From an uncultured Clostridia bacterium (lineage in GTDB: Bacteria > Bacillota > Clostridia > Christensenellales > Pumilibacteraceae), in NCBI GenBank assembly GCA_934229275.1, contig CAKQDN010000001.1, positions 11,596 to 75,595 of the forward strand: a stretch of DNA of 64,000 nucleotides. The letters run 5' to 3'. Positions 15,063-64,000 of this stretch are shown here, piece by piece. Within the stretch, counting starts at the first letter, position 1; the number at the start of each line of letters is the position of its first letter. A model generated the notes under the pieces. It saw only the letters and a list, made by a program, of their open reading frames with translations, had not been told where the DNA came from and searched no databases. Both the position numbers and the translations under genes were made by a program.

Positions 15063-15143
15063 GTTGTATGGTGGGCGTACTTTAAAGCCTCTCCCTCCGG
15101 GAGAGGTGCGGCGATAGCCGATGGAGAGGGTAATTTAAATTTT

Positions 15144-15173
15144 CGGACAGCCAACGGACGCCTGTCCCTACAA
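15144..15173 (-). repeat. REP element, variant 1 (5'-TTGTAGGGACAGGCGTCCGTTGGCTGTCCG-3' on the minus strand)
   Basis: 30/30 identical to the copy at 56873-56902; GTAG head plus GGACAG/CTGTCC arms. Confidence 0.8.
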
Positions 15174-15740
15174 AGACGCACAAACTTTGGTGCGTTGAAA
15201 TTGACTTCTTTAAAGCCTCCTTTGCTTTGCAAGGGAGGTGGCTTCGAGCATAGCGAGAAGACGGTGGGATTATTATCGGGAGGGGGAACCCCTCCCCTAC
15301 ATAGTAAACCAAACCGAGTGCGATTAAACAAGCGAAATTTACATACCAACCCTCTTCGTCGCGGTAAACCGCGCCACCTCTCCCGAAGGGCGAGGCTTTA
15401 AATGCGGTCAAAGCAGAGGCACCAAACCTTGACAAAATCGCACACCTGTCTTAAAGTTTTTTTGCCTGTTTTTTAAATAAGCAAGGTTTTTAGCCATGCA
15501 TAAGCAGAGGCACCAAACCTTGACAAAATCGCACACCTGTCTTAAAGTTTTTTTGCATACTTTTTTTCAAAAAAAGTATGGTTTCAAAAAAATTAAAAAA
15601 GAGGGGAGAGGTTGTCCTCGTCCCCTGCAATTGGAATTCGGCAAAAAATATTAAATTTCACGGGCGTGCGGTTTGCACGAGCCTGTCGCTTCCGTTACGC
15701 GTACTCGGGAGCGTAAATTTTCTGCTTTTGCGACTGTGAG

Positions 15741-51220: not shown

Positions 51221-51334
51221 GTCCGACGACGAATAACGGCACGCCTTTGCGCTACGTGCGATATTCGAACGGCAGTCACGTACAGGAAGTACGCTATTGC
51301 AATAAGTCGATAGTGTGTTTATCCGACTTTCGTT

Positions 51335-51375
51335 AACTCAAAAGTTTTTTGCCTACTTTTTTGCAAAAAAGTAGG
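51335..51375. repeat. family-D AT-stem palindrome (CCTACTTTTTTGCAAAAAAGTAGG) with conserved 5' AACTCAAAAGTTTTTT leader
   Basis: Related copies at 14953-14997, 15541-15581 and 59953-59994. Confidence 0.7.
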
Positions 51376-51376
51376 G

Positions 51377-51406
51377 GCGGACAGTCGGGGACGCCTGTCC
51401 CTACAG
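51377..51406 (-). repeat. REP element, variant 2 (minus-strand 5'-CTGTAGGGACAGGCGTCCCCGACTGTCCGC-3'), 67 nt upstream of the RAYT gene
   Basis: GTAG head plus GGACAG/CTGTCC arms; 29/30 identical to the 57123-57152 copy. Confidence 0.8.
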
Positions 51407-51472
51407 TAATAAGTCGAAAGTACGTCTACTTAACATCTCAATGCATGAGAGAATAACGTAAAACGATAAGAA

Positions 51473-51997
51473 ATGAATGACATAATCGAAAACAGAGTGT
51501 TGTCGCAAAGAGTTCCGACACGTTTACGATACTATGACTACAATAACGCAGGCGCGTATTTTGTAACAATATGCACAATGGGCAAAAAGTGCATATTGTC
51601 GAAGATTGTAGGGACAGGCGTCCTCGACTGTCCGCAACCGGAATTGACCGAATACGGGAAAATCGCCGAAAAATACATTAAATCGATGGGCGAGTTTTAT
51701 AAACATATTTCTATCGACGGATACGTAATAATGCCCAATCACATTCATATCATGCTTGTTATAAAAGAGTGCGAAACAATTAAAAACGACAGTCGCTCGA
51801 ACAGCGCGTATTCGCGATTTGTTTCTACGTTCAAACGTTTTTGTAATAAAGAGTACGGTAGAAACATTTGGCAGGCGCGTTCCAACGACCACATTATTCG
51901 TAACGAGCATGACTACGAAAAACACATGAAGTATATTTACGAGAATCCCTTGAAGTGGACATCCGACGAGATGTATATAAACGAGGTGCAATTGTGA
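51473..51997 (+). CDS. REP-associated tyrosine transposase (RAYT; IS200/IS605-like Y1 HuH transposase family)
   Basis: YFVTICT N-terminal motif, HuH motif MPNHIHIML, C-terminal catalytic-Tyr region NIWQARSNDHIIRNEHDYEKHMKYIYENPLKW closely resembling E. coli YafM-type RAYTs. Surrounded by cognate GTAG-headed REPs. Confidence 0.8.
   Translation: MNDIIENRVLSQRVPTRLRYYDYNNAGAYFVTICTMGKKCILSKIVGTGVLDCPQPELTEYGKIAEKYIKSMGEFYKHISIDGYVIMPNHIHIMLVIKECETIKNDSRSNSAYSRFVSTFKRFCNKEYGRNIWQARSNDHIIRNEHDYEKHMKYIYENPLKWTSDEMYINEVQL
51606..51635 (+). repeat. REP element, variant 2, in-frame inside the RAYT ORF (encodes IVGTGVLDCPQ)
   Basis: 5'-TTGTAGGGACAGGCGTCCTCGACTGTCCGC-3' differs by 1 nt from the intergenic copies at 51377 and 57123 (reverse complement). 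Confidence 0.75.
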
Positions 51998-56872: not shown

Positions 56873-56902
56873 TTGTAGGGACAGGCGTCCGTTGGCTGTC
56901 CG
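56873..56902 (+). repeat. REP element, variant 1
   Basis: 5'-TTGTAGGGACAGGCGTCCGTTGGCTGTCCG-3'; identical to the reverse complement of 15144-15173. Confidence 0.8.
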
Positions 56903-56908
56903 TTTAAC

Positions 56909-57011
56909 GGGAGGGTGGAGTCCGGGTCGCAATTATAAATTGCTTCCCGCTTTGGCTACGAATAGTCCACCGGACTATTCGCTTAACGCGTCGCGCCCCG
57001 CCCCTACAAAG
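56909..57011 (-). repeat. about 100-nt structured element (GTAGGGG-headed; contains perfect palindrome GAATAGTCC-ACC-GGACTATTC), copy 1
   Basis: About 95% identical to the reverse complement of 59692-59786. Ends (CCCCGCCCCTACAAAGG) resemble REP heads. Confidence 0.75.
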
Positions 57012-57122
57012 GCGCACAAGCCGAGTGCGCTGAATCAGCCGACTTCTTTAAAGCCTCTCACTCCGGGAGAGGTGGCACGGCGCAAGCCGTGACGGAGAGG
57101 GTAATAATAGGCGCGGACAGTC

Positions 57123-57152
57123 GGGGACGCCTGTCCCTACAAATCGGATGAT
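57123..57152 (-). repeat. REP element, variant 2
   Basis: Reverse complement TTGTAGGGACAGGCGTCCCCGACTGTCCGC. Confidence 0.8.
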
Positions 57153-57346
57153 TTCGTTTTGTCCTGTGCGTTTATCCTTATATCGTAGGGGAGGGGTCTC
57201 CCCTCCCGTTTACTTTAAAATCATGACTTCTTTAAAGCCTCTCACTCCGGGAGAGGTGGCACGGCGCAAGCCGTGACGGAGAGGGTAATTGCTTGAAAAA
57301 AATACCGTTCGTACGCCCTCTTTTCACCCACCTCGACCGCAAAAAA

Positions 57347-59471: not shown

Positions 59472-60016
59472 ATTATTCAGACACACCACCACCCGTTTTA
59501 AGGCACTCTTGCCCGATGGATAAAATCGGATAGGGGTGCCTGTTTTTTTAAAGTGGGACATGGATGGTCGTCGTCGGAGTTGATCGCGTATCGGAGTGGT
59601 TAAATAACCCTCTTCGTCGGCTGCCGCCGCCATCTCTCCCAGTGGGCGAGGCTTTAAAGAGGACGATTTTAAAGCACCAAGGTTTGAGCGACTTTGTAGG
59701 GGAGGGGCGCGACGCGTTAAGCGAATAGTCCGGTGGACTATTCGTAGCCAAAGCGGGAAGCAATTTATAATTGCGACCCGGACTCCCCCCCCTCCCGAAA
59801 ATAATCCCACCGTCTTCTCGCTATGCTCGAAGCCACCTCCCTTGCATAGCAAAGGAGGCTTTAAAGAGGTCGATTATTTTAAAGTAAGCGGATAGAAGGT
59901 AGCGCCCTGTCCCTACAAAAAAAGTCAAAAGTGCGTTCTCCCAACTTCCCCTAACTCAAAAGTTTTTTGCCTACTTTTTTTCAAAAAAGTACGGTGCTTT
60001 TTTACAAAAAAGTAAG
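59472..60016. repeat. BIME-like mosaic cluster 3 (terminator hairpin, inverted family-A hairpins, about 100-nt element copy 2, truncated REP, family-D palindrome)
   Basis: Hairpin plus T-run 59492-59548, family A (inverted) 59600-59665 and 59833-59880, long element 59692-59786, REP half CCTGTCCCTACAA at 59906-59918, family D at 59953-59994. Confidence 0.8.
59692..59786 (+). repeat. about 100-nt structured element, copy 2 (inverted relative to copy 1)
   Basis: 5'-TTGTAGGGGAGGGGCGCGACGCGTTAAGCGAATAGTCCGGTGGACTATTCG...GGACTCCCCCCCCTCCCG-3'. Confidence 0.75.
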
Positions 60017-60783: not shown

Positions 60784-60822
60784 GTCAACATTGTTGACAG
60801 ACCGTGACAAAAGTAGTATAAT
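60784..60822 (+). promoter_or_regulatory. perfect-consensus sigma-A promoter with 7-1-7 palindrome GTCAACA-T-TGTTGAC over the -35
   Basis: TTGACA 60794-60799, 17 nt, TATAAT 60817-60822; drives the large surface-protein gene. Confidence 0.55.
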
Positions 60823-60897
60823 TAGTGTATCATTGCTTGGTGTGAAGTCGGACAGGCTGTCGCGCAGGAGCAAAAAAATCGAAAAGGAGAAAAATAT

Positions 60898-63800
60898 GAA
60901 AAGAAGATTTGTTGTTCTGATCTGCGTGCTTTGCGCCGTGATGATGGCATGTCCGTTTTTCGCTGCCTGTGACGGCACGCCCGGTCAGACGGACGACGAA
61001 AAGACGTACAGCGTCGTGTTCGATCAAACCGAGATGACGCTTGTCGTCGGCGAAACGAAAACGGTCGGCGTTACGTTCAGCGGCGGAGACACGGTTGAAA
61101 TCAAAATTCAGCCGGAAGACGTCGCGTCTTATGCCGACGGTAAGATCACCGCTCTCAAAGCGGGCAACGCAACCGTAACGGCTAAAATCGGCGACAAGAG
61201 CGCAACCATGAAACTCGTCGTCGAGGCTCGGAAATATTCCGTCACGATCGACGGAGTCAAGAGCGAGGTCGATGCCGGAAGTTATCTCGATAAGCCCTCC
61301 GACCCCAAAAAGGACGCAACTACGGAACATGAGTATGTGTTCGACGGCTGGTATATCGCCGGCACCGGCACTAAATGGGACTTCGCGAAAGATACCGTCA
61401 AAAGCGATCTCGTCCTCGAAGCGAAATTCACCGAAAATCCGAGAATGTATTGGATTGCGTTCGGCAGCGAATTCGTTAAAGGTTACTACGGTCAACTTCT
61501 CGAAAAACCCGAAGATCCCACGAAGCCCAACGAAGGCGAAAATTCTTATGTGTTCGACGGCTGGTATATCGTCGGTACCGACACTAAGTGGGACTTCGAA
61601 AAAGACACCGTAACCGGAAAAGTCAATCTCGAAGCACGCTTTACCACGGTAGTCGCACAGTACACTTATACCTACGAAATCAAACTTAAAAAAGAAAACG
61701 TCATGGGCGCGGCGTACGAACTCGGCGTTATAGACTATTCCGCAGTCACGGCTACGCTTGTAAAAGGAGATCAGACCACCGCTCTCGAAGTTAAAGACGG
61801 AAAGGTGGACGTCGTTGCTACACGCGGTCAGTACGACGTTGTATTTGCTTATAAAGGTCAGTCGATAAAAAAATCGCTTTATTTGCAGGCAAACGGCAAT
61901 GCCGATATCGAATTCGAGAACGAAAAACCCGTCCTCGGCGGTAAAGCAGGCGAACTTCCTTCGTTTAACGGCGGATGGACTCGCAGCGACGACGGCAATA
62001 CTCTCACCGTAACCGGAACGTCGTATGTGTATATCCAGAACGCACAGCCCACCGAAACCGTTTATTACGAAGCAAACGTTTCTTTCACTCAGGGCGTCGG
62101 CAGCATGACCGGTTTTATGCCGGCAGCCGAACATAAATCGCTCGAAGGCAACGACGGCGGCAAAAAACTCTTGTTCTCGTACAGCGCCGGAAACAAGATT
62201 TACTATCAGGAAGTCGCAGGCTGGTCGGGCGCCGGAATTACCACAATGACCTCGCTGGCTTCGGCTCAGTATCCTCTCGATAAATTTAAGATGGGTATCG
62301 CGCGTCGCGGAAACGAATATTTCATTTTCATGAACGACAAACCCATGGGTTATTACAAATCCGATTATATCGAAGGCGCGGGAGATTTCGGTTTTGCTCA
62401 GACGAACGGAAGCACGAAAATTACCTACACCGACGTTAAATACACCACAAAAGCAGACGTCGTCGAACAGATTATAGAAAAGAATAAAGCAAATGCTTAC
62501 CTCGGAGGTAAATTCAATTACCCGGACGGCAAAAAATACGATTCGTTCGCTTCCAGATGGACTATCACGAGCGCAAACGGCGGTTACCTTAACCCGACCA
62601 CTTACGTTTATGCAAGCGAGCAGGTCGGAAACGTCTACTATCAGGAAGTTAACTTCTCTGCAGGCGCAGGTTGGGTCGGACTTCTCGTCAACACGCTCGA
62701 CGGTCAGCCTTGCGATAACAAAGGCTGGTACGGCTACGGCGTGCTTTACGGATCTCTTTATCTGCACAAATTCAGCAGTTGGTACGAAGGCGATCCGCTC
62801 GGCGACGTAGGCACAAACGGCAAGGCGTTCAAAATGGGCGTCGCGCGTATTTACGACAGATATTTCGTTTATATCAACGATAAATTTGTTCGCTCCGACG
62901 TCGTAACCGCTTATTCCACCGCGAATAAAGCCAAGGCGTTGCCTGCCGGCAATATGTCCGGATTCGGATTGTTCCGCGGCAGCAACGAAGAAAACCTTAA
63001 TCAGAGAATAGATTTCAGCAATTATTACTACACCACCGATCTCGAAGAAGTAAGCAAAAAGGTGGGAAGTGCCGCTATCGCAACGTTCGACTCGACGGTC
63101 ACCATGACTCAGAACGGTAAAAAGGTTAATAGCGGCGACGTACTCTATGCCGGAATTCCCGTCGAAATGGGCTTCAACGCTCCCGAAGGAAAGGCAATCA
63201 AGAGTTATAAACTCACGCGCGACGGAAAAGACGTCGATTTGAAAATAGACGGAACGTCTTTGTACTTCACCCCCGAAGTAAGCGGCAAATACGTCGCGAC
63301 GGCGGAATTCACCGAAGCAGGCGAAGCAACGCTCGATCTCACGGTTAAACCCGTCGAACGCAAAGCAGGTGATAAGACGTATTCGCTGTATGACATGAAC
63401 GTCGATTACAGCAAAGTACATGTATCCGTTCTCAATTTCACCACTGCAAAGGAAACCACGTTCTATATGAGCGGCGCGAACATGACGCAGAAGGTGACGA
63501 GCGGATATTGCAAGATTACCGTAACGTACAAAGATAACAGTTACGTTAAGTACCTCACGATCGAACCCGGCACGACTTTCGAATATCTGACCTATGTATC
63601 CGAAGTATATCTCGGCGGTAAGATCAACAACATCACCGGCGAGCATCTGTCTTTCGACAAAGCACCCGTCGGCTCGACTTCCGGAAACGGATGGGCGCTC
63701 GTAAACGGCAGACGCGATACGGTTCGCATCACCGGTTACACCTACGCATATCAGAACGGCATCATCGGCAATAAGTATTACGTCGAAGGTACTTTCGACA

Positions 63801-64000
63801 GCACCACGCGACTCGACATCGGCAATAATTTCGCAGGACTTTTGGTAAGCCACGGCGAAAAAGACTTAAGCGGCAACGGCGACAAGAAATTCGAAGTCAC
63901 AATACTCGGCGGAGGAATTTTCGCTCTGTATGTGCCTACGCAGTGGAGCCCCGAAAATATCTTCTCGGTAGGTAACTATGCGGACGTTGTGGGCGTTTAC
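60898..64000 (+). CDS. large cell-surface lipoprotein with Big_2 and tandem Listeria-Bacteroides-repeat (Flg_new) domains; 3'-partial at window end
   Basis: AAAAGGAGAAAAA RBS; signal peptide plus lipobox (FFAAC); Ig-like Big_2 segment (TLVVGETKTVGV...KLVV); two Flg_new repeats (YVFDGWYIAGTGTKWDFAKDTV, YVFDGWYIVGTDTKWDFEKDTV); beta-rich downstream domains; ORF open to window end. Confidence 0.8.

Follow-up and report, generated by a model that had tools for sequence, protein, structure and literature searches.

The window, that is, the whole 64-kb stretch of DNA analysed here, carries one copy of a gene for a Y1 HUH nuclease that resembles the REP-associated tyrosine transposases (RAYTs). Its open reading frame (ORF) is intact, occupies positions 51473-51997 (+), begins with ATG and encodes 174 aa. 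The codons of the HUH motif (H90-I-H92) lie at 51740-51748 (+), and that of the predicted catalytic tyrosine, Tyr154 within YIYENP, lies at 51932-51934 (+). The stop codon is shared with the GTG start of the downstream gene (GTGA, 51994-51997). The setting is one of housekeeping genes, with pepF (peptidase M3) on one side and a membrane protein gene, bipA/typA and dnaB on the other. Scans for promoters and terminators around the RAYT gene performed no better than on shuffled sequences.

The original prediction assigned this ORF to the RAYTs from its HuH motif and C-terminal tyrosine, and proposed two profile searches as checks. The first did not bear it out: Pfam Y1_Tnp (PF01797) scored 13.2 bits (E 0.098) against a cut-off of 23. 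The second was divided, as the NCBIfam model REP_Tyr_transpos (NF047646) matched the protein with an E-value of 2.9e-17 but at 62.9 bits, below its curated cut-off of 80. A phmmer search of the PDB returned E. coli TnpA-REP (4ER8) as the sole match (E 3.9e-9), with an alignment running from the HUH strand to the YxxxNP helix. An AF2 model of the protein (mean pLDDT 69.6) likewise had 4er8_A as its top PDB match in Foldseek (E 1.6e-7, TM 0.59/0.61), and the IS200/IS605 TnpAs ranked after it. Residues H90, H92, Y154 and N158 align with H59/H61, Y115 and N119 of 4ER8, whose roles are described in PMC3479197. Across relatives at 36-60% identity, R13, R17, Y23, Y29, F30, T32, H90, H92, Q134, H140, Y154 and N158 are invariant. 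When 37 diverse family members were searched, all 37 matched NF047646, always as the best family (best E 2.2e-22), and 11 matched the IS200 model, more weakly than the RAYT model. Motifs restricted to RAYTs, as given in PMC2817692, are a conserved N-terminal threonine and NP(L/V)(R/K)xG beside the tyrosine. The former corresponds to Thr32 in YFVTICT, which is invariant across the family alignments; the latter reads NPLKWT here, with NP-L-K kept, the glycine replaced and a conserved tryptophan next. Despite the failed Pfam search we uphold the RAYT identity, giving more weight to the RAYT-specific model and to the structural comparison. The HIH and Tyr154 residues, NF047646 and the sequence and fold matches to 4ER8 thus support placement of the protein in the RAYT (TnpA-REP) clade of Y1 HUH proteins, as originally proposed, and by analogy with that clade it would be catalytically active.

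The family to which this protein belongs is large. A word-indexed search gave 6,694 matches, and clustering at 50% identity gave 17,579 representatives. Matches that carry a name come almost all from Clostridia or Oscillospiraceae MAGs, and one member already bears the JGI label RayT. RAYTs are accordingly no rarity in Clostridia; the original prediction had described REP/RAYT systems as known mostly from Proteobacteria. Tandem same-strand pairs of RAYT paralogues were also seen, in L004 (5012-6619), L133 (1721-3841) and L191 (587-1963).

We then delineated the REP family of the window. The 16-mer GTAGGGACAGGCGTCC occurs exactly five times, at 15156-15171(-), 51389-51404(-), 51608-51623(+), 56875-56890(+) and 57125-57140(-), against 0.18 expected from dinucleotide shuffles, none of 100 of which reached five. 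After a spacer of 4-5 nt, every copy runs on into CTGTCCG, and each is predicted to fold into a 6-bp stem, GGACAG/CTGTCC, with a 2-bp inner stem (DNA -7.6 to -9.5 kcal/mol, z -2.8 to -3.5). The loops fall into three variants, GTTGG (15144, 56875), CCGA (51378, 57114) and TCGA (51608), not the two first described.

Four full copies lie outside the RAYT ORF. One, with a GTTGG loop, is at 15144-15171 (-) in an intergenic repeat mosaic between convergent genes. A second lies upstream of the RAYT gene in inverted orientation (51371-51404, -), 69 nt before the start codon, and has a CCGA loop within an extended palindrome, GTAGGG...CCCTAC. The other two form the single doublet of the window, heads outward, downstream of dnaB: the left half is at 56875-56902 (+) with a GTTGG loop and the right half at 57114-57140 (-) with a CCGA loop, their GTAG heads being 265 nt apart with other repeat families in between. 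All four fall in non-coding sequence, which makes up roughly 13% of the window. The fifth copy, GTAGGGACAGGCGTCCTCGACTGTCCG at 51608-51634 (+), lies within the RAYT gene itself and is read in frame as VGTGVLDCP (aa 46-54); we call this position site 1. Dispersal of a GTAG-headed REP through the window in both orientations is therefore confirmed, with some amendment. Of the six or more copies first reported, five hold the 16-mer. The 'partial' copy at 59906 (GTAGGGACAGGGCGC, 59902-59916, -) shares only the head and first arm (GTAGGGACAGG) with the REP, forms no hairpin (-1.9 kcal/mol), resembles another repeat family and is no full member. The copy listed at 51606 is real (51608), but its position inside the ORF and in frame had been overlooked.

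Several further repeats accompany the REPs in the window. A 65-nt double-hairpin repeat, CTTTAAAGCCTCTC.CTCCGGGAGAGG followed by GGCACGGCGCAAGCCGTGAC and then GGAGAGGGTAAT, is present at 15075-15139, 57041-57105 and 57225-57289; two of its copies are 100% identical, and it often abuts a REP, giving BIME-like mosaics. In other MAGs, L037 and L081 among them, similar modules adjoin REP copies. An approximately 85-nt repeat, CTTTAAAGCCTCCTTTGC..GCAAGGGAGGTGGCTTCGAGCATAGCGAGAAGACGGTGGGATTATT, lies at 15198-15283 (+) and 59795-59880 (-) in copies about 95% identical. Hairpins of a second family that begins with GTAG are found at 15277-15300 (-) and 57185-57210 (+); they read GTAGGGGAGGGG-loop-CCCCTCCC and have a stem of 8 bp (-9.1 kcal/mol). 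The window contains no RAYT matching this family, whose presence could be due to a paralogue elsewhere in the genome or to relaxed specificity of the RAYT studied here. Since GTAG-headed families occur in the window without a RAYT of their own there, the assignment of one enzyme to one REP is unproven. A repeat of about 110 nt (59684-59797, +, and 56907-57019, -; about 96% identical), which starts TTTGTAGGGG(A/C)GGGG and ends CCCCTCCCG, looks like the same GTAGGGGAGGGG-loop-CCCCTCCC hairpin, its loop enlarged by some 80 inserted nt.

Two copies of a 76-nt repeat, 83% identical, lie at 51301-51376 and 59919-59994 and contain a perfect, A/T-rich palindrome, GCCTACTTTTTTGCAAAAAAGTAGGC. One of the two is immediately adjacent to the REP that precedes the RAYT gene. 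A tandem duplication (15411-15474 and 15502-15565, 91 nt apart, 95% identical) lies in a 1.1-kb gene-free stretch and carries a promoter-like TTGACA...TAAAGT. Rfam searches at gathering thresholds and a tRNA scan returned nothing in the whole window, including the gene-free stretch around 15411-15565. Within ORF 60791-64000, a 98-nt direct repeat (61325-61422 and 61538-61635, 78% identical) probably reflects a repeated protein domain.

The in-frame REP of the RAYT gene led to a wider pattern. VGTGVLDCP is invariant or nearly so among close homologues, most of which have a second conserved peptide, GQSRTPVPT, directly after the HUH strand. This peptide is encoded, in frame, by the reverse complement of the same hairpin: site 1 reads GTA GGG..., translated as VG..., and the second site (site 2) reads ...CCT ACN, translated as ...PT. 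The two sites bracket the HUH-coding segment of about 140 nt. GQSRTPVPT is missing from the window protein and from P0002, a homologue 70% identical to it. At the corresponding place, the window gene retains a decayed remnant, AACGACAGTCGCTCG at 51785-51799 (+), which corresponds to AACGGACAGTCGAGG in relatives and has lost the CTAC head end. In the AF2 model both sites are low-confidence loops, site 1 between strand 1 and helix 1, and site 2 following the HUH strand and leading into the helix whose counterpart in 4ER8 binds the hairpin (PMC3479197).

The generality of this arrangement was measured in an unbiased sample of 80 diverse homologues from metagenomes, at 27-55% identity. Reverse complementarity between site 1 and site 2 exceeded the 95th percentile of a cross-gene null in 43 of the 80, and 41 had a matching GTAGGG-headed hairpin of 19-30 nt at both sites. 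The orientation of the pair was always '+' then '-', heads outward, with the GTAG heads about 185-220 nt apart, and both positions were held to the same alignment columns across 27-60% protein identity. In a separate survey of 95 loci, the middle segment was on the opposite strand in none, and a phase-variable inversion switch is unsupported.

The 41 genes contain 33 distinct stem arms, nearly all of which form perfect 6-9-bp Watson-Crick stems abutting GTAG, and all but one of the 41 site-1 hairpins (40) retain the GTAG head. Two designs recur: a 6-bp stem with a 10-nt loop, RCGYCCYCGR, as in the window, and an 8-9-bp stem with a 3-4-nt loop. P0105, for instance, has GGCGCG/CGCGCC in place of GGACAG/CTGTCC at both sites. 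At the protein level, the peptides of the two sites vary together, each being what the reverse complement of the other would encode; more than 25 distinct pairs of this kind were seen, such as VGDDAHIVP/GTMWASSPT and VGAGHPAGP/GPAGCPAPT, and in a test of reverse-complement translation 150 of 244 proteins scored at least 7 of 8. The window gene matches that of L125 at all 33 nt of codons 45-55, against 58% elsewhere, and that of L205 at 30 of 30 hairpin nucleotides, despite saturated dS and a dN of 0.216 between these two genes. Because synonymous positions are frozen in this way (33/33 nt versus 58%), the constraint acts on DNA or RNA and not on protein. The in-gene copies thus appear to be kept as DNA or RNA hairpins, whose stems change by compensatory substitutions at both sites together. 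Within genes, the two copies co-vary strongly. Protein and hairpin distances across the 41 genes are weakly related (Mantel r 0.116; 57 of 2000 permutations equalled or exceeded this value). On the strength of these comparisons, the genes surveyed probably represent a very large, chiefly Clostridial and apparently undescribed RAYT branch that typically holds inverted REPs within its reading frame.

We next compared this layout with the one by which rayt genes are defined, in which two inverted REPs flank the gene (PMC2817692 and PMC8266576). Inverted GTAG pairs flanked none of the genes that have an in-gene pair in this sample, and a canonical flanking pair was present in three genes that lack the in-gene pair (L161, L181 and L176). 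Among the genes examined, then, the in-gene pair substitutes for the flanking one. The window gene differs from both layouts: it has one inverted REP upstream, the partner inside the ORF and none downstream, and so lacks the canonical flanking pair. L205 shares this layout, with an inverted REP upstream and a site-1 copy, the distance from REP to start codon being 69-85 nt in the window and L205. The window gene is a derived form in which site 1 persists intact, site 2 has degenerated and an inverted REP lies shortly before the start codon.

Other relatives depart from the two-copy arrangement in different ways. Some have in-frame arrays of hairpins at either site, of up to 6-7 copies and even in other reading frames. 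In others the HUH-coding segment between the sites has been deleted in frame; P0197 is the clearest case and P0169 a probable one. P0197 reads IVGTGVPT, which back-translation from the protein indicates could be encoded by GTAGGGACAGGCGTCCCTAC, the site-1 head joined to the site-2 end. In L036 (2191-2332), a RAYT gene breaks off precisely where its site-1 REP ends on the 3' side (...VVGTGVPDCPQSIVN, then a stop) and is followed by unrelated AT-rich DNA, a rearrangement breakpoint at an in-gene REP.

Dispersal beyond the window was assessed by scanning one genome per species for the exact 16-mer, which yielded at least 120 stretches with at least 156 copies. The matches listed come nearly all from gut MAGs of Clostridia, Oscillospiraceae, Eubacteriales or Acutalibacteraceae. 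Confinement of the palindrome to its locus, the outcome that the original prediction had set against itself, is not what we found, as it is dispersed both in the window and across these at least 120 listed stretches, nearly all of them from Clostridia MAGs. The dispersed copies are 27-28 nt long. At the listed loci the flanks are unrelated, most copies lie outside long open frames, and a tblastn search found a RAYT homologue in only about 10 of the at least 120 stretches. TCGA (90 copies) and CCGA (31) are the dominant loops among the matches listed, and the GTTGG loop of the window was not seen among them. Inverted pairs outnumber direct pairs among these matches (22 versus 10), and inverted doublets 69-87 nt apart recur. 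A REPIN is an inverted REP doublet with a short spacer that recurs and replicates as a unit; these recurring pairs, and the one doublet of the window with 265 nt and other repeats between its heads, are the observations that bear on such an organisation. Several genomes yield 3-5 loci each among the matches listed, and L205 has six REP copies within 11 kb.

Two side observations concern sequence around and within these copies. TT precedes GTAG in about half of them (TTT, GTT, ATT and CTT together in 77 of the 156 copies listed, L002-L121), and this may reflect a target or cleavage-site preference unlike the CT of E. coli. In three Terriglobia/Acidobacteriota MAGs (L016, L066 and L091), the same 16-mer sits in a different hairpin, GTAGGGACAGGCGTCCTCGCCTG(T/C)CC, which may be an unrelated GTAG REP that has converged on a similar arm.

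Around the genes with in-gene pairs the picture is different. The flanks of 40 other such loci contain 4 own-type extragenic copies in 213 kb, and no extragenic copy of the P0105 variant hairpin is present in the 14 kb of the P0105 locus. Such scarcity suggests that in many lineages the in-gene pair may persist although no population of dispersed REPs accompanies it. Set beside the dispersal seen in the genome scan, it suggests that the in-gene pair is the constant feature and that proliferation varies by lineage.

Taken together, these data make it probable that the window encodes a RAYT-clade nuclease with a cognate 27-28-nt GTAG hairpin, that the REPs of this branch lie in frame and are kept as hairpins, and that the window gene is a derived member. 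The mechanism we propose for it is drawn by analogy. From work on the RAYTs of E. coli, S. maltophilia and Marinomonas (PMC3479197, PMC8266576), and from E. coli TnpA-REP in particular, the protein would bind GTAG and the hairpin on single-stranded DNA, and the bound enzyme would cleave and rejoin nearby, seeding the extragenic copies. The in-gene copies would be the element's own borders, moved into two tolerant loops, and would tie the enzyme to its substrate. As a side effect they would create a long-range stem of 29-31 bp that would be expected to limit expression when formed in mRNA and to favour deletion of the HUH segment when formed in single-stranded DNA.

Folding predictions are consistent with such a stem. 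In L125, a predicted 29-bp stem closes a loop containing the HUH segment (RNA -82.3 kcal/mol, z -8.7; DNA -49.2 kcal/mol, z -9.4). In the window, the upstream REP and the in-gene copy are predicted to form a 31-bp stem (-114 kcal/mol, z -10.8), with 45 codons as well as the start codon and ribosome-binding site in the loop that it closes. This predicted pairing suggests that expression is self-limited and offers a route to the HUH-less deletion alleles. It also raises the alternative that the hairpins serve chiefly as an RNA autoregulator, in which a 29-bp mRNA duplex blocks translation or draws RNase III and keeps the nuclease scarce, DNA recognition being secondary. The dominance of the long-range stem in the predicted L125 fold and the placement of the window stem around the start codon both speak for this, as does the holding down of IS200 transposase expression by hairpins (work cited in PMC3733652). 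An RNA duplex, however, would not need the GTAG head that nearly all site-1 hairpins retain, nor identity with the dispersed REPs of the genome, and no promoter was placed from which the upstream REP would be transcribed together with the window gene. We think a primarily regulatory role possible, though on the unlikely side.

The deletion alleles invite an extension of the substrate reading. The canonical gene of this branch could hold its own REPIN, consisting of a GTAG-hairpin, the HUH core of about 140 nt and a hairpin-CTAC, which would act as a master copy that seeds and re-homogenises the genomic REPs; the HUH-less alleles of P0197 and P0169 would then represent self-excision that switches the nuclease off. 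This is a speculation about which we are doubtful. If it were true, enzyme and substrate would be inherited as one unit.

It could also be argued that the in-gene copies are passive passengers, REPs that insert or convert near their own transposase gene and survive, without a role, where they happen to be in frame in two tolerant loops. Both sites do fall in low-confidence loops of the AF2 model, these loops accept long arrays even in other frames, the window gene and P0002 are intact without site 2, and REPs within other genes are documented (PMC3733652). Passengers, however, would hardly be expected to occupy the same alignment columns at 27-60% protein identity, always in the same relative orientation, or to stay matched to one another during sequence turnover, and many loci with an in-gene pair have no extragenic donor copies nearby. 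We therefore regard this explanation as improbable. We dismiss as very improbable indeed the proposal that the peptides VGTGVLDCP and GQSRTPVPT represent conserved protein motifs of the ordinary kind, with the extragenic copies as relics of decayed RAYT genes: the peptide is invariant in close homologues and a few truncated genes exist (e.g., L036 and L110), but frozen synonymous sites, together with peptides that vary by lineage yet remain mutual reverse-complement translations, reject the motif, and the rarity of tblastn similarity to RAYTs at the listed REP loci, whose flanks are unrelated, rejects the relics.

The searchable literature describes REPs that flank rayt genes, REPs inside unrelated genes and RAYTs of group 1 in Clostridia. 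Within that literature, which covers papers readable without subscription, we found no description of REPs inside rayt genes. The presence of RAYTs in Clostridia is thus already known, and REP borders within the rayt ORF appear, on the sequences compared here, to be new relative to this literature. Two questions about these systems are open in the field: the way in which REPs spread, and what keeps a given RAYT matched to the REP that is its own. If the in-gene hairpins are the enzyme's substrate, as we favour, thousands of enzyme-substrate pairs could be read directly from metagenomes, and they would provide a natural series of compensatory changes for studies of specificity, with natural array and deletion alleles. 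The hairpins also explain two annotation puzzles in Clostridia, the origin of the VGTGVLDCP and GQSRTPVPT peptides and the variable length of the gene.

Among known systems, the closest parallel is the REPtron, represented by E. coli TnpA-REP (yafM, 4ER8) and the Proteobacterial RAYTs of groups 2/3. The two share the Y1 HUH fold, the catalytic tyrosine and the YxxxNP region, an imperfect hairpin with GTAG immediately on its 5' side, and an inverted REP pair tied to the gene. As with REPtron REPs and BIMEs, the gene occurs once in the window, in a chromosomal housekeeping setting, and extragenic copies lie in repeat mosaics. Unlike those of the REPtron, the REPs here do not flank the ORF but form a translated part of it, the window gene falls below the curated NCBIfam cut-off and reads NPLKW where NP(L/V)(R/K)xG is the rule, and an identical 27-nt REP is common to many species whose RAYTs are only 55-70% identical. 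The likeness of this branch to the REPtron is drawn from sequence and predicted fold, whereas the E. coli REPtron itself has been characterised biochemically. The IS200/IS605 TnpAs share this fold and likewise work by recognising a hairpin on single-stranded DNA. In contrast to them, the window protein does not reach the Pfam Y1_Tnp threshold, its gene is single in the window among housekeeping neighbours, and it has neither a tnpB nor a multi-copy element with subterminal hairpins outside the gene.

Palindromic repeats in frame within protein genes are also known from Rickettsia, as the Rickettsia palindromic elements. REPs within recB and similar genes (described in PMC3733652) resemble these elements and the present case in that short palindromes are tolerated in frame in coding sequence. 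In both of those systems the host gene is unrelated to the mobilising enzyme, whereas here it is the putative mobilising enzyme itself, with two fixed inverted sites that appear to evolve in concert across thousands of lineages.
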